From Candidatus Eiseniibacteriota bacterium (GTDB taxonomy: Bacteria; Eisenbacteria; RBG-16-71-46; CAZAMP01): 64,000 nt of DNA. The translations under genes were made by a program, and so were the position numbers. Below the pieces are notes generated by a model that was not told the DNA's origin, did no database searches, and saw nothing but the letters and a program-made list of their open reading frames with translations. Positions 10,076 to 57,312 of the stretch are shown piece after piece. The stretch lies in NCBI GenBank assembly GCA_965224245.1, contig OZ245046.1, positions 2,084,148 through 2,148,147 of the forward strand. Direction: 5' to 3'. The stretch's first letter is position 1. Every line of letters begins with the position of its first letter.

Positions 10076-10447
10076 CTAGTCGGTTTCGGCGGCCTCGCCC
10101 GCCTCGGACTCGGCTTGCTTGGCCGCGATCACCGAGCTGGTCGACTCGGCCTTCTCGCGCCGATCGACGAGCTTGTTCTTGTGCTTCTTGACCTGGCGCT
10201 CGAGTCGGTCGATCGCGCCGTCGATCGACGTCACGACGTCGGTGGTCTCCTCGCGGCTCACGAGGTCGGGGCCTCCGGCCACCTTCAGCGAGATCTCGGT
10301 CTGGTAGCGGAACTTCTCCTTGGTGATCGTCACGGTGGCATCGAATATCTTGCCGAAGTAGCGATCGAGGCGCTGCAGCTTCTCCTCGGCGTGCTCGCGT
10401 GTCTTCGGACTCAGCTCGAAATGGCGTGCCGTGGTCGTGATGTCCAT
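10076..10447 (-). CDS. hpf: ribosome hibernation promoting factor (sigma-54 modulation protein)
   Basis: Start moved to the internal ATG at 10445-10447 (SD-like GGAGAGGA upstream); 'MDITTTARHFELSPKTREHAEEKLQRLDRYF' HPF/RaiA-type; position directly downstream of rpoN. Confidence 0.85.
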   Translation of the reverse strand: MDITTTARHFELSPKTREHAEEKLQRLDRYFGKIFDATVTITKEKFRYQTEISLKVAGGPDLVSREETTDVVTSIDGAIDRLERQVKKHKNKLVDRREKAESTSSVIAAKQAESEAGEAAETD

Positions 10448-11956: not shown

Positions 11957-12055
11957 CTGTGGCTTCCGTTCCTCCGCGACGGCGACGGCCGCCATCGTCG
12001 GACGACCCCGCGTCCGGGCGCGGCGCCGGGTCGACACGAGAGCGTCACTCCGGCG

Positions 12056-32190: not shown

Positions 32191-33072
32191 TCATCCGTAT
32201 GCGCGCCGGACGGTCTCTGTCAGCAGTCGGCGAAACGAGGCCGAAACCTTACCCGCGATCTCGGTGACCTCGTCGTGTGTGAGCTTGTGGGGCGAGAGGC
32301 CCGTGCCGAGGTTGCTGATGCACGAGATGGCCAGCACCTCCGGACCCGACAGTCGCGCCGCGATCGCCTCGGGCACGGTGGACATGCAGGCCGCATCGCC
32401 CCCCAACCACCGGTACAGCCGGACCTCGGCCGGGGTTTCGTACGAGGGACCGCGTCCGAACACGAGACACCCTTCGCGAAGCGCGATTCCGGTCGCGGCC
32501 GCCGCCTCGTGGGCGGCCGCGCGCAGACGTGGCGAGTAGAGCCAGTCACCGCCGAGTGCATCCCCACGGGCACCGCCGCGGCCCGCGGGCACGAGCGAGG
32601 CGACGTCGCCGCCGGCGATCGTCGGGGTCAGCCCGAGGCTGATGTGGTCGGCCACGAGCATCAGGCTTCCGGGCGTCAGATCCGACCGCATCGCGCCGGC
32701 CGCGTTGGTCAGCACGACGCCCCGCACCCCGAGGGCGGCCATCACGCGCACCATGTGCGTCACGGCCCCTGCGTCGTATCCCTCGTACCGATGTACGCGC
32801 CCCTGGAGCACCACGACCGGCACGCCCTCGACCCGACCCGCCACCACCCGACCCGCGTGACCGGCGACGGTGCTCACCGGCACGTGGGGCAGCGCGTCGG
32901 TCGGGACCGCGCGGGCGTCGTCCAGGGCGTCGGCGAACGGGCCCAGGCCCGAGCCGAGGACGACGCCGGCCCGGGGCTCGGCCTCGTCGGAGAGGCCGAG
33001 CGCGTCCCGCACCGCATCGGCGGTCTCACGAACCCGACGAGGCGGGACGACCCGGTCCAACGCGACCTCCAC
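32191..33072 (-). CDS. purine nucleoside phosphorylase (PNP/MTAP family)
   Basis: 'GVVLGSGLG', 'TVAGHAGRVVAGRVEGVPVVVLQGRVHRYEGY', 'CMSTVPEAIAA'. Confidence 0.85.
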   Translation of the reverse strand: MEVALDRVVPPRRVRETADAVRDALGLSDEAEPRAGVVLGSGLGPFADALDDARAVPTDALPHVPVSTVAGHAGRVVAGRVEGVPVVVLQGRVHRYEGYDAGAVTHMVRVMAALGVRGVVLTNAAGAMRSDLTPGSLMLVADHISLGLTPTIAGGDVASLVPAGRGGARGDALGGDWLYSPRLRAAAHEAAAATGIALREGCLVFGRGPSYETPAEVRLYRWLGGDAACMSTVPEAIAARLSGPEVLAISCISNLGTGLSPHKLTHDEVTEIAGKVSASFRRLLTETVRRAYG

Positions 33073-34798
33073 GTGGTCTCTGGATGCCGAACTTCTTCAT
33101 CTTGTACCGCAGGTTTCGCTCGGAGATCCCCAGCTCGCCGGCGGCGCGCGTCTGGATCCAGTCGTGCTTCTCGAGGGCCTGAACCAGCGCCGTCTGTTCG
33201 AGATCCTCGAGGGTGGCCCCGTCCAGGGAGAGCGAGCGTCCATCCCCGTCTCCGGCGGCCCGTACCTCGGGAGAGAGCAGATCGACGTCGATCGTCTCGT
33301 CCTGACTCAGCACCAGGGCGCGGGAGATCACGTTCTCGAGCTCTCGTACGTTGCCCGGCCAGTCGTACTTGCAGAGCGCATCCAGCGCGGCCGGCGTCAG
33401 CCGGCGCCCGGGGCTCTCGAACTGCTGTCCCAGCGTGGACAGAAAGTGATCGGCCAGGAGCGGGATGTCCTCGGGACGGTCGCGGAGCGCGGGCAGCGTC
33501 AGCTCGATCACCTTGAGCCGGTAGTAGAGGTCCTCGCGGAATCGCTTCTCGGCGATCGCGTTCTCCAGGTCGATGTTGGTGGCGGCGATGATCCGGACGT
33601 CCACGTCGATGGACTTGCGTCCCCCGACGCGCTCGAACTGCTTCTCCTGGACGACGCGGAGCACCTTGGCCTGCACGACGAGGCTCATGTCGCCGATCTC
33701 GTCCAGGAACAGCGTGCCTCCGTTCGCCTGCTCGAACTTCCCGGCACGCCCCTCCACACCGGTGGCGGTGCCCTTCTCGATCCCGAAGAGCTCGGACTCG
33801 ATCAACGTCTCGGGCAACGCCGCGCAGTTCACCGACACGAAGGGACCCGTGCGCGTGCCCTGGTAGTGGATGACCTTCGCGATCAGCTCCTTGCCGGTGC
33901 CGTTCTCTCCCCGGATCAAGACGCTGACCGGTTTTCGTCCCACTCGTTCGGCCAGGGCGAACACGTCGCGCATGGGTCGCGATCGGCCGATGATCCCGTG
34001 GAACGAGAACCGATCGGAGACCTCGGCGCGCAGGCGCGCGTTCTCCTCGGCCAGGCGAGATTCCTCGTGGCGCACCCGGGCGAACGCGAGGGAGTTGCGG
34101 AACGCCACGCCGGCATGGTCGCAGAACATGCGCAGGAAGGTGCGATCGGACTCGTCGAAGAGACCCTTCACCGAGCGGCTCTCGAGATACACGACGCCGT
34201 AGACCTCGCCGTCCAGCAGGATGGGCGCGGCGAGGACCGAGAGGATCTGCAGCGCGACCACGGACTGCTTCGAGCGCAGCGCGTCGTCGTCGAGCGCGTT
34301 TCGCGTGTAGTACGGCTCGCGGGTCTCGCGCACCTTCGCGACCACGGTCTGGCTGATCTCCCGCTCGGCGCCCTCGATCGTCTGCTGGTCCACGTTGCGG
34401 GCGGCCCGGATCACGAGATCGTCGCCGGCGCTCAGGAAGAAGAACCCGCGCTCGGCGCGCGAGTGCTCGATCACGAGATCCATGACCACGTCGAACAGCT
34501 CGTCCTCTTCGAGGACGGCCGACAGCGTCCGTGTCACCTCGAGGATCGTCCGCGCCATCGTCTCCGCCGCGCCGTCGCCGCCGGGCGCCTCGGTCCGGAG
34601 CTCGGGGAGCAGCGTCTCGCGTCCCTCACGCAGCAGCTGGTCCAGCCGACTCAGGGCCAGCCGGACCGTCTCGATCTCCGACCCGGTGATCGGCGCGTTC
34701 GGGTCCACCCCAGAGGCGAACTCGGCGGCCCGTCGCACGAGGCGATGCGCCTGATCGATCAGCTGGTCGAGACGCGCGAGCGCATCGGTGGACGACAT
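33026..34798 (-). CDS. sigma-54-dependent transcriptional activator (GAF sensor, AAA+ domain, Fis-type HTH)
   Basis: Internal ATG at 34796-34798 gives a 590-aa protein; Walker A 'GENGTGKE', GAFTGA-type loop 'ESELFGIEKGTATG', Walker B 'GGTLFLDEIG', C-terminal HTH; the listed ORF has an Arg-rich extension. Confidence 0.85.
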   Translation of the reverse strand: MSSTDALARLDQLIDQAHRLVRRAAEFASGVDPNAPITGSEIETVRLALSRLDQLLREGRETLLPELRTEAPGGDGAAETMARTILEVTRTLSAVLEEDELFDVVMDLVIEHSRAERGFFFLSAGDDLVIRAARNVDQQTIEGAEREISQTVVAKVRETREPYYTRNALDDDALRSKQSVVALQILSVLAAPILLDGEVYGVVYLESRSVKGLFDESDRTFLRMFCDHAGVAFRNSLAFARVRHEESRLAEENARLRAEVSDRFSFHGIIGRSRPMRDVFALAERVGRKPVSVLIRGENGTGKELIAKVIHYQGTRTGPFVSVNCAALPETLIESELFGIEKGTATGVEGRAGKFEQANGGTLFLDEIGDMSLVVQAKVLRVVQEKQFERVGGRKSIDVDVRIIAATNIDLENAIAEKRFREDLYYRLKVIELTLPALRDRPEDIPLLADHFLSTLGQQFESPGRRLTPAALDALCKYDWPGNVRELENVISRALVLSQDETIDVDLLSPEVRAAGDGDGRSLSLDGATLEDLEQTALVQALEKHDWIQTRAAGELGISERNLRYKMKKFGIQRPRGGRVGPGRPASSGS

Positions 34799-34854
34799 GG
34801 CGAGACCTTCCCCTTTCCGATGACGCGCCCGGTCAGTGAGCGGCCGGGGCGCGC

Positions 34855-38533: not shown

Positions 38534-39391
38534 TCACGTCGAGGCCGGCTTGCGGGCCACGACGGCGAACTCGGACGCCGCGGGATCGAACTCGCCTCCG
38601 GCCACGTCCCCGAGAACCTCCTCGACGACGAGACCGCTCCCCTCGACCTCACGCGTGAGCGCACCCGGATCGTAGTGCTGGAGCCAGTTGTAGACGACCC
38701 GTACCCGCGCCGGCTCCACGATCGTGTACCGGTCGAGCACCACTTTCTCCGCGTCGTACTTGAAGGTGCGGAGGAAACCGAAGTACGGCTCGGGCGACCA
38801 GAACCCCCCGAGGAGATCGCGGCCGACCTCGAGGCGCTCCTCCCGGCGCTCGAATGCGCCGAGCGACACGACGTCGAGGAGGAGCGCTCCGCCCGGCTCC
38901 AGGATCGCCTGGAACACGTCCAGCAGGCGGCGTCGCTGAACGGGACCGAGCGCGCAGAAGTCGCACATGATCATCGTGACGAGGTCGAACCGTTCACTCC
39001 ATCGGTGCTCGAGGTAGTCGGCGTGAACGTGATCGACCGAGACCCCCCGGCGCCGGGACAGCTCGCGCGCGTATCGGATCGAGCGCTCGGAGAAGTCGAT
39101 TCCGTGCACGCGAGCGCCGGCGGCCGCGAGCCGCGTGGTATAGAGCCCCGGCCCGCAGCCGAAGTCGGCCACGCGGGCGCCGCCCCCGAGTGCGAACCGA
39201 TCGGCGATCCAGGCCGCGGACCGATCGATGAACGCCCCCGATCGCGACGCCAGGTCGCTCGTTCCGTCCAGGTGACACTCCAGCATCCGGGCCGACGTGT
39301 GTGGATCGGTCCAGAGCTCGGCGACCGTGTGAACCTCGAACGGTGCCGGTCGCGCGTCGATGCTCTCGAGCGCGCCGTAGAGGTCGTTCAT
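38534..39391 (-). CDS. class I SAM-dependent methyltransferase
   Basis: Internal ATG at 39389-39391 (ATGA overlap with the permease stop); motif I 'VADFGCGPGLYT'. Confidence 0.8.
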   Translation of the reverse strand: MNDLYGALESIDARPAPFEVHTVAELWTDPHTSARMLECHLDGTSDLASRSGAFIDRSAAWIADRFALGGGARVADFGCGPGLYTTRLAAAGARVHGIDFSERSIRYARELSRRRGVSVDHVHADYLEHRWSERFDLVTMIMCDFCALGPVQRRRLLDVFQAILEPGGALLLDVVSLGAFERREERLEVGRDLLGGFWSPEPYFGFLRTFKYDAEKVVLDRYTIVEPARVRVVYNWLQHYDPGALTREVEGSGLVVEEVLGDVAGGEFDPAASEFAVVARKPAST

Positions 39392-40302
39392 GCGCGGCTC
39401 TCCTCGTCGTACGGAACGCCCACGTTCCCCGGCGGTGTCGATCGTCCGATGAAGCCGCACAGGACGACGAGCGTCAACACGTACGGAATCATCTGCACGA
39501 CGTGTGAGGGCACGTCCACGCCGAGCGAGGTCTGGAGCCTGATCTGGAGCGCCTCGGCGAACCCGAACACCAGGCTGGCCAGGACGGCCCCCCCGGGGCG
39601 CCACTTGCCCACGATCATCGCCGCCAGCGCGATGTATCCGCGTCCAGCGGTCATTCCGGACGTGAACGACGCCTGCTCGCTGGCCAGATACGCCCCCGCG
39701 AGCCCGGCCAGGAGGCCCGAGGCGAGAACGCCCGCCGTCCTCACCCGGCGCACGCGGATGCCGAGGCTCGCCGCCGCCACGGCGTGCTCGCCCACCGCGC
39801 GCAGCCGGAGCCCGAAGCGGGTCCGGTAGAGCACGACGTGCGAGGCCACCGCGATCAGGAGCGTGGCCAGGACGAGCGGATGCGAGAGGGTCGGGCCGAC
39901 CACCGGAATCGCCGACAGCCCCGACACCGCCCCCGGATCGAACCCGACGATGCGCGGCGAGTTCGAACTCGAGCCGAACACGAGCTTCAAGGTGAAGTCG
40001 GTGGCTCCGAGCATCGTCAGGTTGATCGCGATGCCCGAGACGATCTGCTCGCCGCGAAAGCGGATGGTCACGATCGCGTGCACGCCCGCCACGGCGAGAC
40101 CGACCAGGAGTGCCGCGAGCACGCCGAGCTCCGGAGCCTGACCGAAGTACGCACCGATCGCGAAGCCGAACGCGCCGGCGAGCATGATGCCCTCGAGCGC
40201 GATGTTCACCACCCCCCCGCGCTCGGAGAACATCCCCCCCAGCGACGCCAGCACGTACGGGATCGAGATGCGGAGTCCCTGGGCCACGAAGGCGATCTCC
40301 AT
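39388..40302 (-). CDS. ABC transporter permease (BMP/nucleoside-type system)
   Basis: 304-aa polytopic membrane protein, second permease of the operon. Confidence 0.8.
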   Translation of the reverse strand: MEIAFVAQGLRISIPYVLASLGGMFSERGGVVNIALEGIMLAGAFGFAIGAYFGQAPELGVLAALLVGLAVAGVHAIVTIRFRGEQIVSGIAINLTMLGATDFTLKLVFGSSSNSPRIVGFDPGAVSGLSAIPVVGPTLSHPLVLATLLIAVASHVVLYRTRFGLRLRAVGEHAVAAASLGIRVRRVRTAGVLASGLLAGLAGAYLASEQASFTSGMTAGRGYIALAAMIVGKWRPGGAVLASLVFGFAEALQIRLQTSLGVDVPSHVVQMIPYVLTLVVLCGFIGRSTPPGNVGVPYDEESRA

Positions 40303-40303
40303 G

Positions 40304-41368
40304 TCAGGACCTCCCGGCCAGTGCGGCCTTCGCGCGCTCGACCCGGAGCCGCTCGGCGACCGAGCGGCTCACCAGGATCATCAGGATCACGACACCCTGG
40401 AGGATCGAGACGATCTCCTTCGGCACGAGGTCGCTGACGGTCAGCCCGCCGTGCTGCATCGCCCCGAACAGGAGCGCGGCCAGCACGACGCCGATGGGCC
40501 GGCTCTGCCCCAGCATCGCCACCGCGATGCCCATGAAGCCGACGCCGTCGGAGAAGTTCGCTCCGAAGTAGTGCCGGTAGCCGAGCACCTCGTGCACCCC
40601 GACCAGCCCCGCCATCGCACCGCCCAGCACGAAGGCCGTCCGCTGGCGGGCCCCGACGGCGATGCCCGCCGCGCCGGCCGCGCGCGGGTTCAGCCCCACC
40701 GCGCGGAGCTCGAATCCGAGCGGGGTCCTCCACAGGAATACGTGGACGAGCGCGGCGACGACCAGCGCGACCGCGAGGGCGACGCTCACCGATGCGCCCC
40801 GGAAGGCCGGGATGATCGTCGAGAGCCGGGGCAGCCAGATCGACGACGGCACGTGCTCGGTATGGATGGTCTCGGGCACCGCCATGTGGTACGTCACGAC
40901 GTATCCGGTCAGCGCGATCGCGACGAAGTTCAGCATGATCGTGCTGATCACCTCGTGCGCGCCGAAGCGGCTCTTCAAGGCGCCGGCGATCCCGCCCCAG
41001 AGCGCGCCCCCGAGCGCCGCGGCGATCATCACGCCCGCGCACAGCATCGGTCCGGGCACGCCCGGCAACGCCAGCGCCAGCGCCGCGGCGGCGAACGCGC
41101 CGACGTAGAGCTGACCCTCGGCGCCGATGTTGAACAGCCCCGCGCGAAACGGAAGCGCCACCGCGAGCCCCGTGAAGATCAGCGGCGTGGCGTTGAACAG
41201 CGACTGCCCCAGGCCGTAGGGGGACAGGAGCGTCTCGGAGACGAGCCGCGCCAGCACCACCATCGGAGACGCACCGGCCACGGCGACCAGGATCGCGCCG
41301 ATGCCGAGCGTCAACGCAGCGGCGGCGACGGCGGTGACGAGATCGATCCGTCTCGCGTCGGTGCTCAT
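40304..41368 (-). CDS. ABC transporter permease (BMP/nucleoside-type system)
   Basis: Polytopic membrane protein; start at the ATG that overlaps the ATPase stop (ATGA). Confidence 0.8.
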   Translation of the reverse strand: MSTDARRIDLVTAVAAAALTLGIGAILVAVAGASPMVVLARLVSETLLSPYGLGQSLFNATPLIFTGLAVALPFRAGLFNIGAEGQLYVGAFAAAALALALPGVPGPMLCAGVMIAAALGGALWGGIAGALKSRFGAHEVISTIMLNFVAIALTGYVVTYHMAVPETIHTEHVPSSIWLPRLSTIIPAFRGASVSVALAVALVVAALVHVFLWRTPLGFELRAVGLNPRAAGAAGIAVGARQRTAFVLGGAMAGLVGVHEVLGYRHYFGANFSDGVGFMGIAVAMLGQSRPIGVVLAALLFGAMQHGGLTVSDLVPKEIVSILQGVVILMILVSRSVAERLRVERAKAALAGRS

Positions 41369-42912
41369 CGGACGCTCGCTCGACCGCCGAGCATCCACTC
41401 ACCCAGCACCTCGGGCGTGGCCTCCTCACCCGGAAGCTCGGCCACGATCGCACCGCGCACCATCACCAGGATGCGATGCGACAGCGTCGTCAGCTCGTCC
41501 AGCTCGGCGCTCACGAGCAGCACCCCCAGCCCGTCCGAGGCCGCCTCGGCCAGCATGCGGTGGAGCGACGCCACCGCGCCCACGTCCACGCCGCGCGTGG
41601 GCCCGGCCGCCACCAGGAGGACCGGATCTCCGGCCAGCGCGCGGGCCAGGACCACCTTCTGCTGATTGCCGCCCGAGAGTTCCTCCACCGGTGCCCCGGC
41701 GTCGGGCGGTCGCACGTCGTAGCGCCCGACGAGCGCCTCCGCCTCGCGGGTGACGGCCGCGCGATCGCGGAGGAGCGCGTTCGCGAACGGGCGGCGGCGA
41801 TGTCGGCCCAGGACGAGATTGTCCGCGACCGAGAACGTCGAGACGAGCCCCTCGTCCAGCCGGTCCTCGGGGACCAGTCCGATGCCGGCGTCGGCGAAGG
41901 CACCGCGGTCCCGCCCGCGGAGCTCGGTCGCGCCCAGCGTGATCCGCCCCGAGTCCGGCGCCCGCAGTCCGGACACGACCTCCACGAGCTCGGTCTGTCC
42001 GTTTCCGGCCACACCGGCCACGCCCACCACCTCGCCCGCGCGCACGCCGAGGGACACGTCGTCGAGAAGCGTGTGGCCGTGGGAGTCCGTCAGCGAGACC
42101 CGATCCAGCGACAGGAGCATCTCGCGCGAGCGCGGCGCCGTCCGCCGCGGCGGCACCGGCAGCGAGCGTCCGACCATCGCGTGCGCGAGAGACTCGATGG
42201 TCACGTCCGACACGGCGGACGTGGAGATGGTGCGACCGCGCCGCATGACGGTGGCGCGATCGGCCACCCGCACCACCTCGGACAGGCGGTGCGTGATCAG
42301 GATGATCGTGCGTCCCGACGCTGACAGCCCGGTCAGCGCACGGAACAGTCCGTCGGTCTCCTGGGGGGTCAGCACCGCGGTGGGCTCGTCGAGCACCAGC
42401 ACGCGGGCGCCCCGGTGCAGGAGCTTCAGGATCTCGACCTGCTGCTTTGCACCCACGCCGAGCGTGTCCACGCGAGCGCACGGATCGACCGGCATGCCGT
42501 GCTCGGCGCCCAGCTCCGCCACGCGCGTGTCCGCCCGGCCGCGGAGGTGGAAGCCGGCGCGTACCGGCTCGTGACCGAGGACGACGTTGTCGGCCACCGT
42601 GAGGGGTGCGACCAGCGTGAAGTGCTGGTGGACCATGCCGATGCCGGCCGCGATGGCGTCGCGCGGAGACCGGAGCTCGATCTCGCGTCCGTCGACGCGG
42701 ATCTGGCCCGCGTCGGGACGCGTCTCGCCGTAGAGGATGCGCATCAGCGTGGATTTGCCGGCGCCGTTCTCGCCCACGATCGCGTGGATCTCGCCCCGGT
42801 TCGCCGAGAACGACACGCCGTCGTTGGCGATCACACGCGCGAACCGCTTGACGATGCCGGTCAGCTCGACCGCGGGCGTCGTGCCGTTGTCCGCCCTCGC
42901 CCCGGGGGTCAT
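41365..42912 (-). CDS. ABC transporter ATP-binding protein with tandem nucleotide-binding domains
   Basis: Internal ATG at 42910-42912; first NBD 'GENGAGKST', 'VLVLDEPTA'; second NBD 'GVAGNGQTEL', 'LSGGNQQKV'; the listed ORF has an Arg-rich 5' extension. Confidence 0.85.
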   Translation of the reverse strand: MTPGARADNGTTPAVELTGIVKRFARVIANDGVSFSANRGEIHAIVGENGAGKSTLMRILYGETRPDAGQIRVDGREIELRSPRDAIAAGIGMVHQHFTLVAPLTVADNVVLGHEPVRAGFHLRGRADTRVAELGAEHGMPVDPCARVDTLGVGAKQQVEILKLLHRGARVLVLDEPTAVLTPQETDGLFRALTGLSASGRTIILITHRLSEVVRVADRATVMRRGRTISTSAVSDVTIESLAHAMVGRSLPVPPRRTAPRSREMLLSLDRVSLTDSHGHTLLDDVSLGVRAGEVVGVAGVAGNGQTELVEVVSGLRAPDSGRITLGATELRGRDRGAFADAGIGLVPEDRLDEGLVSTFSVADNLVLGRHRRRPFANALLRDRAAVTREAEALVGRYDVRPPDAGAPVEELSGGNQQKVVLARALAGDPVLLVAAGPTRGVDVGAVASLHRMLAEAASDGLGVLLVSAELDELTTLSHRILVMVRGAIVAELPGEEATPEVLGEWMLGGRASVR

Positions 42913-43985
42913 CGCGTGCGCGGCACCGTCACGCGCCCGGAGACGATGTCGTCCCGGTAGGCCTCGACCTGCGCGTGCACGTCGTCGTCGATCAGCTCCC
43001 GGTTGTGATCGTCGTAGACGTAGTCGACGCCCCGCTCGGCCAGTCCCAGCTCGCGCACGCCTCCCGAGAAGCGACCGGCCAGCTCGGCCTTGATCGTCTC
43101 GAAGACCGCGACGTCCACGCGCTTGACCATGCTGGACAGGATGCGCCCTGGCGCCTCCTCGTATTGATCGGAATCGACGCCGATCGCGAAGCGCCGCGTC
43201 TGGCGCGCCGCCTCGAACACGCCGAGACCGGTGGCGCCGGCCGCGTGGAAGATCACGTCCGCCCCGGACTCGTACTGCGCGAGGGCCAGCTCCTTGCCCT
43301 TCGACGGGTTCGCGAACGCCTCGCCGGTGACCCCGGCGTAGCTGACGAAGACGGTCACGTCCTCGCGCGCGTGCTCGGCGCCGGCCTCGTACCCCGCCTG
43401 GAAGCGATGGATCAGCGGGATGTCCATGCCGCCCACGAACCCGATCTTGCCCGTCTTCGACGTCAGCGCGGCCAGCGCGCCGACCAGGAACGAGCCCTCT
43501 TCCTCCCGGAACCGGAGCGCCGTCAGGTTCGGCGGCAGCGTCTCGCCGTCCTTCAGCGAGTAGTCCACGCAGGCGAAGTGCCGATCGGGGAACTCCTCGG
43601 CGATGTGCCGGATGTCGTCGGAGAACAGAAACCCGACCCCGAACACGAGCTTCAGGTCGGACGCCGCCATCTTCCTGAGCGACGGCTCGCGATCCGCGCC
43701 CGATGGTGGCTCCAGGATCTCGAAGTCGATCCCGAGCGAGTCGCGGGCCCGCAGGAGTCCCCGGTATGCGGCGTCGTTGAACGACTTGTCCCCGAGACCG
43801 CCCACGTCGAACACGAGCCCGACCACGGGACGGGACTGGCTGGACGACTGGTCCGCGCGGCATCCCCAGAGCACGACCGCCCCCAGCGAGAGGCCCACGA
43901 GCGCGGCCGACACCCCGCGGGCGAGGCGGCGCCGGGGCGGGTCCGGAACGCGCGTGCCACAGCGGTCGGCCATCATCCCTCCCTC
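42909..43985 (-). CDS. BMP-family ABC transporter substrate-binding lipoprotein (nucleoside-binding type)
   Basis: Start at 43983-43985 (GAGGGAGGG upstream); lipobox 'LWGC'; '[17 protein letters not shown]', 'FGVGFLF'. Confidence 0.8.
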
Positions 43986-44545
43986 GGCGGCTGGAAGCAG
44001 TGGCGGCATCGCGCCTCGTAGACGTCGGCGGCCCCGACCACGATGCGCTCGCCCGACGGTGTCTTGCGCTGGCTCCGATTGCCCGGCCCCCCGCACACCA
44101 CGCAGATGGCCAGCGTCTTGGTGATGTACTCGGCGATGGCCAGGAGCTCGGGGATCGGCTCGAACGGGCGACCGCGGTAGTCGGTGTCGAGCCCGGCGAC
44201 GATCACCCTCCGGCCGCCCGCCGCGAGATCCTGACACACACCGACCACGCGCGGACCGAAGAACTGCACCTCGTCGATGCCCACGACCTGGGCGTCGCCG
44301 GCCAGCTCGGCGATCTCGGCCGACGTGGACACGGCCTGCGACGGCAGGCTGATCTGACTGTGCGACACGATGTGATCGGCGCGGTAGCGGTCGTCGAGCT
44401 TGGGCTTGAAGATCGCCACCCGCTGCTTGGCGATCTCGGCGCGGCGCAGACGGCGAATGAGCTCCTCGGACTTTCCGCTGAACATGCTGCCGCAGATGAC
44501 TTCGACCCAGCCCGGCCGTCCGGCCGGATGCGGCGGTGGATTCAT
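43973..44545 (-). CDS. tdk: thymidine kinase
   Basis: '[17 protein letters not shown]', '[10 protein letters not shown]', C-terminal zinc ribbon 'CVVCGGPG...RCRHCF'. Confidence 0.85.
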
Positions 44546-44598: not shown

Positions 44599-45237
44599 TC
44601 AGTTCATGCCCGCGAGCTGCGAGCGGATCTTGGTCTTCAACAGATCGACGGCCACGTGATTGTAGCCGCCCTCGGGAATGATGACGTCGGCGTAGCGCTT
44701 GGTGGGCTCGATGAACTGCTGGTGCATCGGCCGGACGTACGCCTCGTACTGCGCGATGATCGACTCGACCGAGCGCCCGCGCTCGAACACGTCCCGCTTG
44801 AGGCGGCGGATGAACCGCACGTCGGGATCGGTGTCGATGTACACCTTGATCCGCATCTTCTCGCGCAGTCGCCGGTCGTAGAACACGAGAATACCCTCCA
44901 GGATCACGATCCGCGAGCCGCCGGCGCGCGTGGTCTCCCGGGTGCGAACGTGGTTGACGTAGTCGTACACGGGGACGTCCACGTGCGTGCCGGACAGCAG
45001 CGTGTCGACGTGAGCCCGCAGGAGGTCGGTGTCGAACGCGTCTGGATGGTCGAAGTTGAACGCGGCGCGCTCGGGCTCGGGCATGTGGCCGAGGTCACGG
45101 TAGTAGTTGTCCTGCCGGAGGATGACGACCTTGTCGGGCCCCAGGTCGTCGTAGATGGACCGGGCCACCGACGTCTTGCCGGAGCCGCTGCCACCGGCGA
45201 TGCCGATCAGGATCCCCTCCTGCTCGCGCAGGATCAT
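44599..45237 (-). CDS. udk: uridine kinase
   Basis: Internal ATG at 45235-45237 gives 212 aa '[15 protein letters not shown]...LRQDNYYRD...YDYVNHVR'. Confidence 0.9.
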
Positions 45238-45539
45238 GCCCCACCTCCCCCGGAGTCCCGGCCGGACGACGGCGAGCGCGATACGTCGTCCACCACCCCG
45301 ACGATCATCGTGCGTACGGGACCACGGCCGGTCTCCATGACCACCGCGGCGCCGCCGCCTTCGTCGTTGACGAGGACCCGATCGCCCACACCCGCGTCCA
45401 CGCTGTCCAGCGCGATCACGTCGTCGGGCTCGAGCTCGCCGCGATCGTTCTCGTACGCGATCACGAGCAGCTTCCATCCCACGAGCGCGGGATGCTTGAC
45501 GGTGGACACCACCTCGCCGGTCACCCGCGCGACACGCAC
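45234..45539 (-). CDS. EutN/CcmL/PduN-family bacterial microcompartment vertex protein homolog
   Basis: GTG at 45537-45539 (GGAGGA 8 nt upstream, 1 nt after the dNK stop) gives 101 aa 'VRVARVTGEVVSTVKHPALVGWKLLVI...ALDSVDAGVGDRVLV...PVRTMIVGVVDDV', collinear with E. coli EutN; the stop overlaps the udk ATG. Confidence 0.7.
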   Translation of the reverse strand: MRVARVTGEVVSTVKHPALVGWKLLVIAYENDRGELEPDDVIALDSVDAGVGDRVLVNDEGGGAAVVMETGRGPVRTMIVGVVDDVSRSPSSGRDSGGGGA

Positions 45540-45540
45540 G

Positions 45541-46194
45541 TCAGTCCTCCGGTCCCGCGTCCAGCGCACCCAGGCGACGCGCGCGGGCCCGTACGTCTCG
45601 GTAGATCCGCTCGAGGCCGTCGTCGAGAAAGTCGGGCGCCTCGGTGTCGACCTCGAGCACCTCGAAGCGATCGCGCGCCTCGGCCATCCAGGCCGCATAC
45701 GCGTTCTCCAGCCGCTGCAGGTACTCGCGCGAGATCCCCTGCTCGCACTCGCGGCCCCGGCTCTGGATCCGCTCCACGTGGGTGTCGATCGACGCCTTGA
45801 GGTACAGGATGAGATCTGGCGGGCGAAGCCCGTCGACCATCTCCCAGAACAGCGATCGGTAGGTGTCGTAGTCGATGCGCGACATGTCCCCTTGCCGGAG
45901 CAATGTCGTCGCGAAGACCTCGGCGTCCTCGTAGATCGTGCGATCCTGGATGAACGAGCGTTTCTCCATCACGAAGCGCTTCTGGGCCTTGTAACGCTCG
46001 GAGAGAAAGTACATCTGCAGGTGGAACGACCACCGCGCCATGTCGGCGTAGAAGTCCTCGAGATACGGGTTCTCGATGACGGGCTCGTAGTACACCGGCC
46101 AGCCCAGTCGCTGGCTGAGCGTGCTCGAGACGTGCGTCTTGCCCACGCCGATGTTGCCGGCGACCGCCAGGAAGAAGCCGCGCCCGGCGCTCAC
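45541..46194 (-). CDS. deoxynucleoside kinase (dAK/dGK/dCK family)
   Basis: P-loop 'VAGNIGVGKTH', 'YYEPVIENPYLEDFY', 'ERS'-type motif region; GTGA overlap with the hpt stop. Confidence 0.85.
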   Translation of the reverse strand: MSAGRGFFLAVAGNIGVGKTHVSSTLSQRLGWPVYYEPVIENPYLEDFYADMARWSFHLQMYFLSERYKAQKRFVMEKRSFIQDRTIYEDAEVFATTLLRQGDMSRIDYDTYRSLFWEMVDGLRPPDLILYLKASIDTHVERIQSRGRECEQGISREYLQRLENAYAAWMAEARDRFEVLEVDTEAPDFLDDGLERIYRDVRARARRLGALDAGPED

Positions 46195-46718
46195 ACGCCC
46201 GCCTCGGCCGGATCGAGAACGCCGATGTAGGGCAGCTCGCGGTGCCGCTCGGCGTAGTCCATGCCGTACCCGACCACGAACTTGTCGGGGATCGCGAAGC
46301 CCACGTAGTCCACCTTCACGTCCACCTCGCGCCGATCCACCTTGTCCAGGAGCGCGCAGGTCCTGAAGGACCGGGGGCGCCGGATCTGGAGGCTATCGCG
46401 CATGTAGGCCAGCGAGCGACCCGAGTCCACGATGTCCTCGACGAGCAAGAGATCGCGGCCGGAGACGTCGGTGTCCAGGTCCTTCAGCAGGCGCACGACG
46501 CCGCTGGAGGACGTGCCGTCCCCGTACGAGGACACGGACATGAAGTCGACCTCGTGCGGGATCGGCAGCCTGCGCATGAGGTCCGACATGAACATGAACG
46601 AGCCCTTGAGGACGCCGACCAGGATCAGGTCGGCGTCGGGACCGTAATCGCGCGTGATCTCCCCGGCGAGCTCGTCGACCCGCCGGTCGATCGCCTCGCG
46701 CGTGATGAGTATCTCCAC
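46191..46718 (-). CDS. hpt: hypoxanthine phosphoribosyltransferase
   Basis: GTG at 46716-46718 (GGGGGGAG upstream) gives 175 aa; PRPP motif 'LLLVEDIVDSGRS', 'YVGFAIPDKFVVGYGMDYAERHR'. Confidence 0.85.
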   Translation of the reverse strand: MEILITREAIDRRVDELAGEITRDYGPDADLILVGVLKGSFMFMSDLMRRLPIPHEVDFMSVSSYGDGTSSSGVVRLLKDLDTDVSGRDLLLVEDIVDSGRSLAYMRDSLQIRRPRSFRTCALLDKVDRREVDVKVDYVGFAIPDKFVVGYGMDYAERHRELPYIGVLDPAEAGV

Positions 46719-46851: not shown

Positions 46852-47949
46852 ATGGCAGACGACGCCACCACCCATCCTCCGATCACCCGCGAGCTGATCC
46901 TCGCGCTTCCCAAGACCGACCTCCACGTACACCTGGACGGATCCCTCCGGCCGGAGACCGTGCTGGAGCTGGTCGGGCAGTACGGGATCGAGCACCCGGC
47001 GAGGACTCCCGCCGAGATGCAGCGCGCGCTCAGCGTGGACGGGTCCCGATCCCTCGAGGAGTACCTCGAGGTCTTCGAGTTCACGCTGCGCCTGCTCCAG
47101 GAGCGCTCGTCCATCGAGCGAGTGGCCTACGAGCTGGCCGTCGACGCGGCCGCCGAGAACGTCCGGCACCTGGAGGTGCGATTCGCCCCGATTCTCCATC
47201 AGAGTCAGGGCCTCTCGCTGGACGAGATCCTGGACGCGGCCCTCGCCGGGCTCTCGCGGGCGAACTCCGAGACCGGCATCCGGACCGGCGTCATCGTGTG
47301 CGGCATCCGGCACATCCGCCCCGAGCGCTCGCTCGATCTGGCCGACCTGGCCGTGCGCTACAAGCACCGGGGCGTGGTCGCGTTCGATCTGGCCGGCGCC
47401 GAGCGGGACAACCCCGCCAAGCATCACCTGGAGGCGTTCTACCGGGTCCTCAATGCGAACCTCAGCTGCACCGTGCACGCCGGTGAGGCGTTCGGCCCGG
47501 CCTCCATCCACCAGGCCATTCACTACTGCGGCGCGCACCGGATCGGGCACGGCACACGGCTTCGGGAGGACCCCGAGCTCCTGGCCTACGTCAACGATCA
47601 CCGGATCCCGATCGAGATGTGCCTCACGTCCAACCTGCACACCGGCGCGATCTCGCGCCTCGAGGACCATCCGTTCCGCGACTACTTCGACCTGGGGCTC
47701 CGGGTCACGCTGAACACCGACAACCGGCTCATCTCGAACACGACGGTCACCGACGAGCTGGTCCTGGCCTGCGAGATGTTCCGGCTCACGCCCGGCGAGC
47801 TACGCTACGTGATCCTGAACGGATTCAAGAGCGCCTTCCTGCCCTTCGCCGAGAAGGTCGAGATGATGGCCCGCGTCGTGGAGGAGCTGGATTCGGTGCT
47901 CCAGGCGCATCATCCCGACAGCTCCCACCACGGCCGGTCGATCCTCTGA
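46852..47949 (+). CDS. add: adenosine deaminase
   Basis: Internal ATG at 46852; 'LPKTDLHVHLDGSLRPET', 'HAGE', 'HRIGHG', 'TLNTDN'; the listed ORF has a spurious 5' extension. Confidence 0.9.
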   Translation: MADDATTHPPITRELILALPKTDLHVHLDGSLRPETVLELVGQYGIEHPARTPAEMQRALSVDGSRSLEEYLEVFEFTLRLLQERSSIERVAYELAVDAAAENVRHLEVRFAPILHQSQGLSLDEILDAALAGLSRANSETGIRTGVIVCGIRHIRPERSLDLADLAVRYKHRGVVAFDLAGAERDNPAKHHLEAFYRVLNANLSCTVHAGEAFGPASIHQAIHYCGAHRIGHGTRLREDPELLAYVNDHRIPIEMCLTSNLHTGAISRLEDHPFRDYFDLGLRVTLNTDNRLISNTTVTDELVLACEMFRLTPGELRYVILNGFKSAFLPFAEKVEMMARVVEELDSVLQAHHPDSSHHGRSIL

Positions 47950-47992
47950 ACATCCCCGTCCACGCGGTCCTCACCTCGTGGCGGGAACACGC

Positions 47993-47998
47993 TATAAT
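47993..47998 (+). promoter_or_regulatory. isolated consensus -10 hexamer (TATAAT)
   Basis: Perfect TATAAT 60 nt upstream of the 48059 ATG in a 70% GC background; no good -35 partner. Confidence 0.25.
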
Positions 47999-48058
47999 GG
48001 ACGGGTCGCGCATGCGCGGCGCGAACCGTCGACGCACATCCCCGGAGCTCCATTCGGC

Positions 48059-48517
48059 ATGCCTCAGCTCGAGCAAACGAAGGTCCGTGTCTCCCGCCAA
48101 ACCGTTCGAATCCTCTGGTGGGCCTACGCCGGCGCCGTGGCGCTCTCCACCGTCCTGACCCTGGTCGGAACGGGCACGCGTGGAGAGACCGGGACGACCT
48201 GGTCGATTCCGGTGGCCGTGTGCCTGGGGGCCGCGCTGGTGGCCGCCATCTTCTCCTACCAGGTCATGATGTCGCTGCCCGGAGCCGGACATCAGATCTT
48301 CGACACCGTCGGCGATCACTTCGAGCTGGCGATTCGCAACCTCTTCTTGCGATTCGTTCTCGCCGGCGGCGCGGCGACCGGCACCGGGCTCGTGGGGGCC
48401 GTCACGTTCGCGCTCGGTGCGAACGGCGTGCTCAGCCTGGCCGTGATCGGCCTGGCGTTCGGGCTCCTGTTGCTCCTCCGCCAGCGCGTCGCACCGCTGG
48501 TTCACTACCTGGCCTAG
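48059..48517 (+). CDS. hypothetical membrane protein
   Basis: ATG at 48059 (GGAG upstream); about 4 hydrophobic segments; high GC3; the opposite-strand ORF is Arg-rich. Confidence 0.55.
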   Translation: MPQLEQTKVRVSRQTVRILWWAYAGAVALSTVLTLVGTGTRGETGTTWSIPVAVCLGAALVAAIFSYQVMMSLPGAGHQIFDTVGDHFELAIRNLFLRFVLAGGAATGTGLVGAVTFALGANGVLSLAVIGLAFGLLLLLRQRVAPLVHYLA

Positions 48518-48593
48518 CTCACCGGACCCGTCGCGCGCGGGCACGGGAGCGGGCGCGCTGCACCGCGATCCCCCGGACGGGCACCGAGGTCGC

Positions 48594-48622
48594 TTGAACC
48601 GAACGCCTTACGCGGCTATGCT
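48594..48622 (+). promoter_or_regulatory. putative sigma70-type promoter
   Basis: TTGAAC (48594-48599), 17-nt spacer, TATGCT (48617-48622), about 90 nt upstream of the 48715 ATG. Confidence 0.35.
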
Positions 48623-48714
48623 GTGCGGCCTTCGAACGCCCCCGGGGCGAACGGGCGTCTCCGACGTGCTCCGTCCCGGCTCGATTTCTCCCCCAAACGG
48701 AGGGCTTCCCGAAC

Positions 48715-49359
48715 ATGCCCAAAGCGATCTGCGGAGTCGTACTCGCCGCCGGCTACGGATCGGTCGGTGAGCAGCGGAAGGTCCATCTGACGGTCGACCG
48801 GAAGACGCTGGTGCGTCGAGCCGTGGATCGCTTCGACGAGACCGGCGTCTCCAGCGTGCTGGCCGTCATCGACCCCCGGGACGAGACCACGCGCCGGTCC
48901 CTGGAAGGCAGCCGGGCCACGATCGTCGAGGCGGCCACCGCACAGGTGAGCGCCGGCGTCGCCGCGGCGCTGGAGGGCGCGACGCCCGACGCCGACGCCT
49001 ACGCGTTCGTGCCGGCCACGCTGGCGCTGATCACGCCCGAGCTCCTGGCTCAGTCCCTGTCGGCCTTCGAAGAGACCGCCGACGGGATCCTGGCCACGGT
49101 CTACCAGGCGGTCCCGGGCTATCCGATGATCGTCGAGCGCCGGTTCCGGGATCCGCTCCTGGCCGCGGTGAAGGAGCAGTCGGACCCCCTGGGGCTTCTC
49201 CTGCTCGACCACCCTCGGGACGTGTTCGATCTCCACGTGATCACCGACGCGCCGATCTTCGACGTCGACGACGAGAGCGACTACGAGGAGCTGCACCGGC
49301 GGCTGGGGCTGAGCGTGCCCGAGTCGAGCCCCTCGTCCTCCGAGGGAGCCGGCGTCTGA
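48715..49359 (+). CDS. nucleotidyltransferase-family protein (MobA/MocA-like)
   Basis: 'ICGVVLAAGYGS...G' N-terminal NTP-transferase motif and C-terminal 'DVDDESDYEEL', as in MocA-type cytidylyltransferases. Confidence 0.6.
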   Translation: MPKAICGVVLAAGYGSVGEQRKVHLTVDRKTLVRRAVDRFDETGVSSVLAVIDPRDETTRRSLEGSRATIVEAATAQVSAGVAAALEGATPDADAYAFVPATLALITPELLAQSLSAFEETADGILATVYQAVPGYPMIVERRFRDPLLAAVKEQSDPLGLLLLDHPRDVFDLHVITDAPIFDVDDESDYEELHRRLGLSVPESSPSSSEGAGV

Positions 49360-49409
49360 CGACGCGCACCCTGCGCCTCATCCAGCGCCGGCGTCCCGCC
49401 GGACACGAG

Positions 49410-49445
49410 AAACGCCTCCCCGGGCCGGTGCCCGGGGAGGCGTTT
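49410..49445. terminator. bidirectional intrinsic terminator hairpin
   Basis: Perfect 15-bp inverted repeat AAACGCCTCCCCGGG / CCCGGGGAGGCGTTT with a 6-nt loop, between convergent genes ending at 49359 (+) and 49511 (-). Confidence 0.6.
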
Positions 49446-49510
49446 CGTCGTGTCGTCCGAGACCGTTGCCGGCCGAGGCGGCCCGTGGCCGCCCCGGGTC
49501 GACATCCGGT

Positions 49511-51289: not shown

Positions 51290-51530
51290 GCGATGCACTC
51301 CTTTTGCGTTGCTGGCACTGGACCGCCGGAGCCTCACCCGGCCGGGTCCCGCGCGCAGGCGGGCACCCTCCCGGCCGGCCGACACCCGAACGGTCGGTCG
51401 CTGGATCTCCCATGGTCGCGTCATTTGCGTCAAGTCTATCACCGGCCTCGGTTTGGTACCACATGCGCGGCCCCCATCGGGCCCCATCACGAAGTTCTCA
51501 TCCACCGGCGCGCTTGCTAGACTGCCGCGC

Positions 51531-51974
51531 ATGAGCGCTCACCCCAAGCGACCGGACGGCCCTGCGCGCCCCGATCCGGGCACACGGGCCGCCCTCGAGG
51601 GCCTCGTCTCCCGGTGCGGGCCGTCGCCCGGTGACCAGTGCCCCGCTCTCGCGGCCTGCGGCGACACCGCGGGCCCGATCGGGGTCGCGGTCACGGTCCG
51701 GAGCCAGACGCCCGGCCTCGGCGCCTGCGCGACCCGGCTCGTCCTGGCCCGCGCCGTGGCCGAGGGACGGGCCGCCACACACCTGGTCGTGGACGGCGAC
51801 TGGCAACGGCTGTGCGGGCTCTGCCTGCAGACCCTGCTCGAGCTGGCGCCCGAAGCCCCGGTCTTTCCGCTCGGCCCCAACCCCTCGGCCCCGGTGCCCT
51901 GGCGATCGTTGATCCCGGATCCGTTCGTCTCGTTCATCCCCGAGCCGGCCCCCGGAGGCCCCCGTGTCGACTGA
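51531..51974 (+). CDS. hypothetical Cys-containing protein
   Basis: ATG at 51531; high GC3; 147 aa with 'CGPSPGDQCPALAACGD' and 'CGLC'; its stop overlaps the rpiB start. Confidence 0.5.
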   Translation: MSAHPKRPDGPARPDPGTRAALEGLVSRCGPSPGDQCPALAACGDTAGPIGVAVTVRSQTPGLGACATRLVLARAVAEGRAATHLVVDGDWQRLCGLCLQTLLELAPEAPVFPLGPNPSAPVPWRSLIPDPFVSFIPEPAPGGPRVD

Positions 51975-52431
51975 CCGGCCGAGGCGGGTCGCCATCGGAG
52001 CCGACCATGCCGCCTATCGTTACAAGGTCTCGCTCATGGAGTGGATGAGAGAGGAGCTGGCGGGCGTGTCGGTCCTGGACTGCGGCACCCACTCCGAGGC
52101 CCCGGTCGACTACCCCGACATCGCGGCCGCGGTCGCGAACGCGGTCCGGACCGGCGAGGTGGACCGCGGCATCGTCATCGATCACGCCGGGATCGGATCC
52201 ACGATGGCCGCGAACAAGATCCGCGGGGTCCGGTGCGCGCTGTGCCACGACGAGGCGACCGTCCTCAACAGCCGCCGCCACAACGACGCGAACGTCCTGG
52301 CGCTGGGAAGCGCGGTCGTGAACGTCGGCTACGCGCGCACGCTCGTCCGCGTGTGGCTCGCCGCGCCGTTCGAGGGCGGACGGCACGCGCGGCGCGTGGA
52401 CAAGATCATGGCGCTCGAGGGCTCGTCGTGA
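51964..52431 (+). CDS. rpiB: ribose-5-phosphate isomerase B (RpiB/LacAB family)
   Basis: 'RVAIGADHAAY...VIDHAGIGSTMAANKIRGVRCAL...RRHNDANVLALG...EGGRHARRV' aligns with E. coli RpiB; GTG start. Confidence 0.85.
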   Translation: MSTDRPRRVAIGADHAAYRYKVSLMEWMREELAGVSVLDCGTHSEAPVDYPDIAAAVANAVRTGEVDRGIVIDHAGIGSTMAANKIRGVRCALCHDEATVLNSRRHNDANVLALGSAVVNVGYARTLVRVWLAAPFEGGRHARRVDKIMALEGSS

Positions 52432-53234
52432 TCGTCCCCGGCGGCAACGCCGTCCCGCCCGCGCTCCGCCGGGCCATCGAGGAGCGCGGCCCGAGCGCGA
52501 GTCCGGCGGCCGGGGGCCGTGCCCCGATCGCCTCGATCGCGTCGGTCGTCGACCACACGCTGCTCCGGGCCGACGCCTCGCAGACCCAGATCGAGACGCT
52601 CTGTGCCGAGGCGATCGAGTACGGCTTCGCGTCGGTGTGCGTGAATGCGATCTGGGTGCCGGTGGCCGCGCGCGCGCTCACCGGGTCGGACGTGAGCGTG
52701 TGCACGGTGGTCGGCTTTCCGCTGGGTGCCATGCGCTCGCCGATCAAGGCGCTCGAGGCCGAGACCGCCCGGGCACGCGGCGCGCGGGAGATCGACATGG
52801 TGGTGAACGTGGGCGAGCTGATCGGCGGCGGCGCCGACCGGGTCCGCGAGGACATCGCAACCGTCCGCCGCGTGCTGTCACCCGACGCCACGCTGAAAGT
52901 GATCCTGGAGACGGCGTTCCTCTCCGACGACCAGAAGCGACTGGGCGCCCGCGTGGCCGTCGAGGCCGGCGCGGACTTCGTGAAGACGTCCACCGGCTTC
53001 GGCCCCGGCGGAGCGACGGTGCCCGACGTGCGGCTGCTCGCCGAGACCGTGGGCGAGCGGTGCCGGGTCAAGGCCTCGGGCGGCATCCGGACGCTCGCCG
53101 CGGCGCGGGCCCTCGTCGAGGCGGGCGCGGCGCGCATCGGGGCCAGCGCCGGCGTGGCGATGGCGCGTGAGGAGCGCGGGCTCTCGACGACGACGACGAT
53201 CCCATCGGCCCCACCGCCTCACGGCGGCTACTGA
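52428..53234 (+). CDS. deoC: deoxyribose-phosphate aldolase
   Basis: GTG at 52428 overlapping the rpiB stop; 'VDHTLL', 'VVGFPLG', 'KVILET', Schiff-base lysine region 'AGADFVKTSTGF', 'KASGGIRT'. Confidence 0.85.
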   Translation: MIVPGGNAVPPALRRAIEERGPSASPAAGGRAPIASIASVVDHTLLRADASQTQIETLCAEAIEYGFASVCVNAIWVPVAARALTGSDVSVCTVVGFPLGAMRSPIKALEAETARARGAREIDMVVNVGELIGGGADRVREDIATVRRVLSPDATLKVILETAFLSDDQKRLGARVAVEAGADFVKTSTGFGPGGATVPDVRLLAETVGERCRVKASGGIRTLAAARALVEAGAARIGASAGVAMAREERGLSTTTTIPSAPPPHGGY

Positions 53235-53365
53235 GCCGGATCCGGCCTCGCTCCCGGCGGTCGCCGCGCCCGGGCCCACCCGGAAAAGGGTGGCGAACGC
53301 CCGAAGCGGAACACTAGACTCGCCCGCACGTGAACACCCGTCGACGACCCCAACGCTCCCGTGGG

Positions 53366-57284: not shown

Positions 57285-57312
57285 ACCGGCGCACCCCGGC
57301 GCCCCTGGGCGC

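Follow-up and report, generated by a model that had tools for sequence, protein, structure and literature searches.

Bacterial microcompartments (BMCs) of the FRAG types have their shell genes in up to six genomic places, always with a triplet of genes for the pentameric vertex protein BMC-P; most FRAG shell genes lie far from known enzymes, and the catalogued genomes have the hexamer gene BMC-H elsewhere (Sutter et al. 2021, Nat Commun 12:3809, PMC8217296). A gene for the aldolase DeoC adjoins a lone BMC-P gene in FRAG3, FRAG5 (Planctomycetes) has DeoC and RpiB, and among the FRAG8 loci, nearly all have DeoC, two have RpiB, and 3/7 have an aldehyde dehydrogenase (AldDh), next to a BMC-P triplet and one basal BMC-H (PMC8217296). 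DeoC (PF01791) and RpiB (PF02502) are also the signature enzymes of the sugar-phosphate utilization (SPU; Axen 2014) microcompartments, for which catabolism of DNA-derived deoxyribose has been proposed (PMC8217296; PMC11585597). Here we analyze a BMC-P gene that stands without other shell genes in a putative nucleoside import and salvage operon, within a 64,000-nucleotide stretch of a Candidatus Eiseniibacteriota bacterium genome (GCA_965224245.1, contig OZ245046.1, positions 2,084,148 to 2,148,147; hereafter the window). With a rough probability of 0.6, we read this gene as a one-gene satellite of a fragmented SPU-like (FRAG8-type) microcompartment that catabolizes deoxyribose and as being co-expressed with nucleoside uptake and salvage.

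BMC-P triplets follow a rule by which one member is grey, one is orange, and one is green, blue, or purple, with grey and orange always co-occurring (Sutter et al. 2021, PMC8217296). That three paralogs exist although twelve pentamers suffice has been taken as a hint that the extra ones have an additional role (PMC8217296; PMC11585597). A shell paralog away from the main locus is also seen with cyanobacterial ccmK3/ccmK4, where the placement is thought to permit separate regulation; unlike the window gene, these are hexamer genes only and are not embedded within an enzyme operon.

RESULTS

The BMC-P gene lies at 45234..45539 on the minus strand, with a GTG start codon at 45539, a TGA stop at 45234, and the Shine-Dalgarno sequence GGAGGA six bases 5' of the GTG. 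The start is one base past the stop of the deoxynucleoside kinase gene dNK (TGA-C-GTG), and the stop shares ATGA with the start of the uridine kinase gene udk. The automatic list of open reading frames (ORFs) runs the frame farther 5', to an ATG at 45698, and the public protein collection holds a product identical to the 101-amino-acid protein. A preliminary description of this DNA had recognized a 101-codon EutN/CcmL-family gene packed between the two kinase genes, and the TGAcGTG and ATGA junctions bear out the packing, while the family assignment is confirmed by a significant match to PF03319 (EutN_CcmL) of 76.1 bits (cut-off 25; E=3.2e-21) that spans profile positions 1-83 of 83. The best solved relative by sequence is CcmL (4jvz, E=5e-12), and the solved Escherichia coli EutN (2hd3) matches at E=1.1e-9, as expected from the homology to EutN that had been proposed. 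Scores for the NCBIfam equivalogs of EutN (NF011992, 47 bits versus a cut-off of 118) and CcmL (NF053795, 66.8 bits versus a cut-off of 125) are well under their cut-offs, and the window protein is thus neither EutN nor CcmL proper. It shares with both the Pfam family and the predicted fold; the difference lies in the canonical GSSAR and PxD motifs, which are replaced by EGGGA and PVR.

The AlphaFold2 (AF2) model, a single-chain prediction rather than an experimental structure, was built from a 41-sequence alignment and has a predicted local distance difference test score (pLDDT) of 85.4 and a predicted template modeling score of 0.76. The top 47 fold matches in the Protein Data Bank are all vertex proteins, with template modeling (TM) scores of 0.75-0.81 and root mean square deviations of 1.3-2.0 A; they include CcmL, EutN (2hd3, TM 0.80), GrpN, and pentamers of HO and synthetic carboxysome shells. 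Residues 1-86 form the core of the vertex-protein fold, and residues 87-101 form an unconstrained Ser/Gly-rich tail, which is not Lys/Arg-rich, unlike the DNA-binding tails reported for archaeal vertex proteins (bioRxiv 10.1101/2025.11.08.687404). The DNA for the tail (45234-45278) also encodes the udk ribosome-binding site, and tail length differs among relatives. The gene is predicted to encode a functional BMC-P subunit, one that would be expected to form pentamers.

A protein search returned 109 relatives, whose genomic loci we number with an L. Six of these loci (L001, L002, L009, L025/26, L027/28, and L030) have the gene order hpt-dNK-BMC-P-udk-tdk-Bmp-ABC of the window, with BMC-P identities of 62-88% and neighboring genes 62-77% identical to those of the window; the 1.5-kb contig L030 shows hpt-dNK-BMC-P-udk only. 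The order that the preliminary description had read from a single locus is therefore conserved in six others, and the frame, start, and stop of BMC-P are kept in all seven loci, the window included. The other six salvage-type loci, as fetched, contain zero further shell genes. RpiB and DeoC are encoded a few kilobases 5' in L002 and L009, and RpiB is encoded near the operon in L025. A phage-type integrase fragment and a HicA/HicB toxin-antitoxin pair follow the salvage operon of L027 (11298-13552).

Complete shell loci form a second context (L003, L005, L007, L011, L017-L019, and L021; identity 39-61%), where the relative comes third among three BMC-P genes that lie next to BMC-H, the trimer gene BMC-T, and AldDh, with or without a class II aldolase. 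The gene set in loci of the L005/L021 type is BMC-H, BMC-P, AldDh, BMC-T, BMC-P, BMC-P. The third BMC-P proteins of L005 and L021 (Candidatus Eisenbacteria-type contigs) and of the HO/ACI-like L003, L007, and L011 are the closest to the window protein outside the salvage loci (49-61% identity); all share with it the motifs GEVVxTxKH, DAGVGDRVLV, and DEGxxA, and those of the L005/L021 type also share RGPVRT. In a quick neighbor-joining tree, which carries no support values, the BMC-P proteins of the salvage operons form a single clade, and the sister group of this clade is the third BMC-P of L005/L021-type loci. The history that would most simply account for these sequences is a single move of the third paralog, out of a shell locus and into a salvage operon: the L005/L021-type gene adjoins BMC-H, BMC-T, AldDh, and two other BMC-P genes, and the window gene appears to have left such a locus. 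The first BMC-P of complete loci clusters with CcmL and retains GSSAR and PxD, whereas the second and third paralogs deviate. Given this deviation from the canonical motifs and the triplet rule, the window BMC-P should be a grey or orange "extra" paralog, an assignment made without use of the published tree, and it probably belongs to a triplet-only clade.

Further relatives are linked to deoxyribose genes. A nucleoside catabolic operon of the order phosphomutase-BMC-P-deoC-deoA occurs in L010, a closed Delongbacteria chromosome, and in L023/24 (BMC-P identity 53-54%); L015 has BMC-P-deoC (49%); and the Planctomycetota contig L013 has BMC-P, rpiB, BMC-P, BMC-P, deoC (49%). A lone BMC-P gene (52%) lies between a hypothetical gene and recO in L029 (8882-9172), where metabolic and shell genes are absent within 9 kb, and is another scattered shell gene.

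We considered whether the salvage-embedded proteins have come under a different constraint. Compared with the nearest relative, L030, BMC-P residues 2-86 have a ratio of nonsynonymous (dN) to synonymous (dS) substitution rates, dN/dS, of 0.10 at a dS of 0.41, close to the reference value for dNK (dN/dS 0.07, dS 0.46), while the tail (residues 87-101) is neutral (dN/dS 0.96, dS 0.38). Comparisons with four distant relatives gave dN/dS values of 0.14-0.30, at a dS near saturation (about 1 or more). The salvage clade retains 21/21 columns that are conserved throughout the BMC-P lineage, and its mean column conservation is 0.80 versus 0.83 in the sister clade, whose members are inside shell loci; these values compare column conservation clade by clade. 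The salvage clade has just five fixed changes (F2R, R22W, A63G, L68M, and V78M). Given the purifying selection and the retention of the conserved columns, the BMC-P gene is functional in this lineage, with a constraint that has not visibly changed.

The enzymes expected of an SPU-like system are encoded 6.9 kb from the BMC-P gene. Ribose-5-phosphate isomerase B (RpiB; 51964..52431, plus strand) matches PF02502 with 171.3 bits and TIGR01120 with 148.5 bits, and deoxyribose-phosphate aldolase (DeoC; 52428..53234, plus strand) matches PF01791 and, from residue 37, TIGR00126 with 247.9 bits; the rpiB stop and deoC start overlap as GTGA. DeoC is the ninth ORF away from BMC-P, with eight genes between. 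Since the neighborhood of a shell gene extends for up to 12 ORFs in the published catalog (PMC8217296), this DeoC/RpiB pair belongs to the BMC-P satellite. The pair had been overlooked in the preliminary description, and its presence, together with the occurrence of the same BMC-P lineage beside deoC elsewhere and as the third BMC-P of complete loci, weakens the proposal of an orphan vertex gene.

The companion claim, that the 64 kb hold no hexamer or trimer shell gene, AldDh, or phosphotransacylase, stands. Searches by tblastn with PduA, CcmK2, and EutM and with BMC-H, BMC-T, AldDh, and class II aldolase from a related locus found no such gene in the window at E<=1e-5, and about 50 selected frames, rather than every ORF, gave no match to PF00936, PF00171, or the phosphotransacylase families when scanned with Pfam. 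The window BMC-P is the sole PF03319 or PF00936 gene found in the 64 kb. The locus therefore differs from a compact SPU main locus, in which BMC-H, BMC-P, AldDh, DeoC, and RpiB are contiguous, in that BMC-H, BMC-T, and AldDh are absent from the 64 kb. In SPU loci, three BMC-P genes share a compact operon with BMC-H, BMC-T, and AldDh, whereas the window has one BMC-P, with eight genes between it and the DeoC and RpiB genes; the likeness lies in the DeoC and RpiB pair, the triplet-type BMC-P paralog, and an N-terminal extension on DeoC.

The closer resemblance is to FRAG8, FRAG3, and FRAG5, in that the shell gene of the window stands alone with DeoC and RpiB in its neighborhood. In these types, too, a lone BMC-P belongs to a green/grey/orange triplet system, and AldDh is often not in the neighborhood. 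The earlier statement that such an arrangement was not known to be described does not hold in that form, given the FRAG types catalogued in PMC8217296, of which FRAG3 and FRAG8 have a lone BMC-P and DeoC. The window differs from the FRAG types in the insertion between kinase genes and the link to a Bmp/ABC importer, neither of which is mentioned in the text of the catalog, as distinct from its locus diagrams. The detail of interest added here is the firm tie of one particular BMC-P paralog to nucleoside metabolism, which is found in two different operon designs.

Several of the related loci encode cargo enzymes with N-terminal tags. At the N-termini of DeoC and RpiB of L002 (1029-2386), an amphipathic helix precedes a Pro/Ser-rich linker (DVLVQAITREVIRRL and SLERLVEEVAAEFL), as it does in DeoC and RpiB of L009 (about 20-950; ALVRDITREVMKRL and ELEKLVESVAREMI). 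These N-termini have what looks like the classic encapsulation-peptide layout, and DeoC of L010, L013, L015, L017, and L023 has the same amphipathic helix and linker. Because DeoC, and in L002 and L009 also RpiB, bears such a helix, we argue that the genomes of L002, L009, and these other loci have shells. RpiB and DeoC of L017, a Holophagae metagenome-assembled contig, are apparently encoded in one reading frame without a stop between them (about 4540-5937), with a Pro-rich linker and an encapsulation-peptide-like helix (EDLVRIVARLEAL) connecting the two; a complete shell locus lies just 3' of this frame.

The genes around BMC-P, all on the minus strand, read as a nucleoside import and salvage unit that extends from hpt to two permease genes. 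The first gene, hpt (46191..46718), for hypoxanthine phosphoribosyltransferase, matches TIGR01203 with 221.9 bits (cut-off 150); it has a Shine-Dalgarno sequence and probably starts at the GTG at 46718, and its stop overlaps the dNK start as GTGA. The dNK gene (45541..46194; PF01712, 179.6 bits) encodes a product 73-76% identical to those of L001, L002, and L009. On the other side of BMC-P lie udk (44599..45237; NF004018, 297 bits) and, 53 nucleotides 3' of it, the thymidine kinase gene tdk (43973..44545; NF003296, 245.9 bits; PF00265); the exact products of both are on record. The scores of hpt, dNK, udk, and tdk all exceed the curated cut-offs. A hairpin in the udk-tdk intergenic region is no more stable than shuffled sequences (z=-0.68). 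The tdk stop overlaps, as ATGA, the start of a gene for a Bmp-family lipoprotein (42909..43976) with the lipobox LWGC, identified by tblastn and by synteny with the PF02608 Bmp genes of L001 and L002 as the substrate-binding protein of a nucleoside-type ABC importer. An ABC ATPase gene (41365..42912), which meets bmp at an ATGA junction, and two BPD_transp_2 permease genes (40304..41398 and 39388..40368, the latter matching PF02653 with 143.7 bits at 39391-40368) follow and are syntenic with L001, L002, and L027. Of the operon junctions that were checked, five are 4-nucleotide start/stop overlaps or a 1-nucleotide gap. Between 38.5 and 53.5 kb we found no sigma-70-like promoter and one terminator-like site versus 3.1 expected. 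Sigma-54 consensus matches were at chance level (16 versus 13 expected), none convincing near the salvage operon; Rfam families gave zero matches across the window. A defense-system reading was rejected, as PADLOC gave no match for BMC-P, udk, hpt, or tdk and weak P-loop kinase similarity only for dNK.

Divergent from hpt across a 133-bp intergenic region lies an adenosine deaminase gene (46852..47949, plus strand; PF00962, 320.8 bits; TIGR01430, 305.8 bits) that is kept in L001, L002, L009, and L027. A purine-nucleoside phosphorylase gene 12 kb from the operon (32191..33096, minus strand; NF006054, 277 bits, cut-off 218; PF01048) could release (deoxy)ribose-1-phosphate from imported nucleosides. 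A gene for a GAF-domain sigma-54 activator follows it (the pair spanning 32191-36019, minus strand), and rpoN lies at 10550-12055.

Immediately 5' of rpiB is a small conserved gene (51531..51974, plus strand), tentatively divergent cytidine-deaminase-like, with homologs in L002 (2383-2802), L025 (201-614), and L009 (about 856-1272) and Cys motifs that resemble those of cytidine deaminase. Two homologs score 18.9 and 15.6 bits with PF00383, under the cut-off of 25, and the window copy is unmatched; the gene may encode a divergent or inactivated deaminase. The block between the adenosine deaminase gene and rpiB (47978-51532) is syntenic in L001, L002, L009, and L027 and encodes a 150-amino-acid hypothetical protein with no Pfam match, a MobA-like NTP transferase (48715-49359), and, on the minus strand (49511-51532), a large protein that is secreted and has a lamin-tail domain (LTD). 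Directly 3' of deoC (53330-59274, plus strand) are genes for a TonB-dependent receptor with CarboxypepD_reg, a weakly PorV-like protein, and an NHL-repeat protein, and in L002 a TonB-dependent receptor gene likewise adjoins deoC; this region could encode an outer-membrane uptake system for nucleic-acid-derived substrates. The source lineage is very sparsely sampled: ribosomal proteins L27 (18849-19106) and L21 (19165-19470), MetK (2483-3652), the hibernation factor (10079-10447), Udk, and Tdk each stand alone when a collection of 15 billion proteins is clustered at 90% identity. The GC content of the window is 69%, which, like the TonB receptor with CarboxypepD_reg and the PorV-like gene, would be compatible with a bacterium of the FCB group, possibly one resembling the Gemmatimonadota.

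DISCUSSION

The satellite reading is supported by conserved synteny, purifying selection, an apparent relocation from a shell locus, and repeated linkage to deoC and rpiB. The window BMC-P is most likely not a shell-less orphan, given that RpiB and DeoC are encoded nearby, that its lineage is paired with deoC elsewhere, and that FRAG systems have been catalogued. Of the two explanations offered in the preliminary description, the satellite of a distant locus is the one that we favor, and for the other, a pentamer that was recruited to a non-shell role, the only positive evidence is the weak or absent encapsulation peptides of this genome. The gene would then provide a dispersed microcompartment with the "third" member of the BMC-P triplet that typifies SPU, HO, ACI, and FRAG systems, a microcompartment whose cargo would be DeoC, with or without RpiB. 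Nucleosides would be imported by the Bmp/ABC transporter and partially salvaged through hpt, dNK, udk, tdk, and adenosine deaminase, and DeoC, inside the protein shell, would split surplus deoxyribose-5-phosphate into glyceraldehyde-3-phosphate and toxic acetaldehyde. Since BMC-P is coupled in translation to its neighbors dNK and udk, expression of the nucleoside uptake and salvage operon would always bring production of the pentamer with it, and shell capping, or the extra role of this paralog, would be tied to the supply of nucleosides. We infer that BMC-H and two more BMC-P genes lie elsewhere in the genome and that DeoC is encapsulated.

Several observations weigh against this reading. L001 has the salvage operon and lacks deoC and rpiB within 8 kb, and the hosts of FRAG8 are mostly Gemmatimonadetes (PMC8217296). 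Co-transcription of the operon is read from the gene overlaps, as the sequence shows no conspicuous promoter or terminator consensus, sigma-54 site, or Rfam match. No protein of this genome is among the best 120 of 8000 matches in a BMC-H profile search built on nine sequences, nor among the best 120 of 954 matches, all at least 71% identical, in a search with BMC-P2 of L021; over so small a share of the matches, this does not count as a negative. The cargo tags are also poorly kept. Comparison of N-termini with L002 and L009 showed that the window RpiB has no encapsulation-peptide-like extension, which also sets it apart from the RpiB of SPU loci with its typical encapsulation peptide. The window DeoC has a 36-amino-acid N-terminal extension, in which a short amphipathic helix is broken by two prolines; its amphipathic moment of 0.58 is equalled by 6% of shuffles, and a low-confidence single-sequence AF2 model (pLDDT 47) shows a helix of nine residues, 11-19, and lends the short N-terminal helix weak support. 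Because the tags are absent or weak while the BMC-P core is strongly constrained, cargo targeting may be in the course of loss or change in this lineage. FRAG genomes gave zero matches to encapsulation-peptide hidden Markov models in the catalog, so that such peptides are not required for FRAG systems (PMC8217296).

The same erosion of tags beside a strongly constrained core keeps in play the explanation that survives best after the satellite reading, namely, that in this lineage the microcompartment is gone or has always lacked this paralog and that the pentamer works with the salvage enzymes, for instance, as a scaffold or regulator of dNK and udk or of the importer. We regard this as unlikely. 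It would account for the lack of another shell gene in the 64 kb and in the other six salvage-type loci, for the tight translational coupling between two kinase genes kept across the salvage loci, for a core that remains at a dN/dS of 0.10 next to an RpiB without and a DeoC nearly without encapsulation-peptide-like helices, and for the five clade-fixed substitutions, R22W among them; the hint of a role for extra BMC-P paralogs seen by Sutter et al. 2021 (PMC8217296) and in the 2024 SPU paper (PMC11585597) is in keeping with it. Set against these points is a constraint that has not shifted, with all family-wide conserved positions retained and column conservation nearly that of proteins inside shell loci. 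Moreover, L002 and L009 share the arrangement and bear clear DeoC and RpiB tags, which are sensible only with a shell, and the catalogued FRAG genomes have BMC-H elsewhere. The more specific form of this idea, in which the shell is gone or irrelevant here and a triplet-type "extra" pentamer has a shell-independent job tied to the nucleoside kinases and import, strikes us as quite unlikely; if true, it would give the first concrete handle on why many systems keep three BMC-P paralogs. To our knowledge, there is no precedent for a BMC-P that acts without a shell.

The position of the gene could also be a neutral accident, the gene being a genuine satellite vertex gene of a microcompartment elsewhere whose substrate is unrelated to nucleosides. 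Lone BMC-P genes of the same lineage do occur in unrelated contexts, such as beside recO in L029, the remoteness of most FRAG shell genes from known enzymes fits such a history, and the sister loci, with AldDh and with or without class II aldolase, are of unassigned function. An accident would not, however, explain why the linkage to nucleoside and deoxyribose genes recurs in several phyla and in at least two gene orders (as in the salvage operon, in phosphomutase-BMC-P-deoC-deoA, and where rpiB and deoC accompany the triplet) or why the salvage position is fixed across lineages with saturated synonymous sites (dS about 1 or more), and we consider this explanation improbable, ranking it lower still. 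A decaying relic or chance ORF is hardly credible: the 15-residue C-terminal tail is neutral and long spurious ORFs are common at this GC content, but the full-length Pfam match, the confident fold, the strong Shine-Dalgarno sequence, a frame, start, and stop kept in seven loci, and the low dN/dS of the core speak against it, and we rejected a chance ORF or pseudogene on conservation and dN/dS, with no frameshifts or stops seen in close relatives.

Collectively, our analysis favors a vertex protein gene that has become part of nucleoside metabolism as the satellite of a dispersed microcompartment. For annotation, the locus shows that the wider neighborhood of a lone EutN-family gene should be inspected for DeoC and RpiB before the gene is labeled an orphan. 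If the satellite reading is true, the two designs, hpt-dNK-BMC-P-udk-tdk-Bmp-ABC here and phosphomutase-BMC-P-deoC-deoA in other phyla, would provide genomic support for a role of SPU and FRAG microcompartments in the catabolism of nucleic acids and deoxyribose. The locus would also offer a practical entry to the question of why there are three BMC-P paralogs, given that one of them is apparently regulated with substrate supply and can be studied alone.

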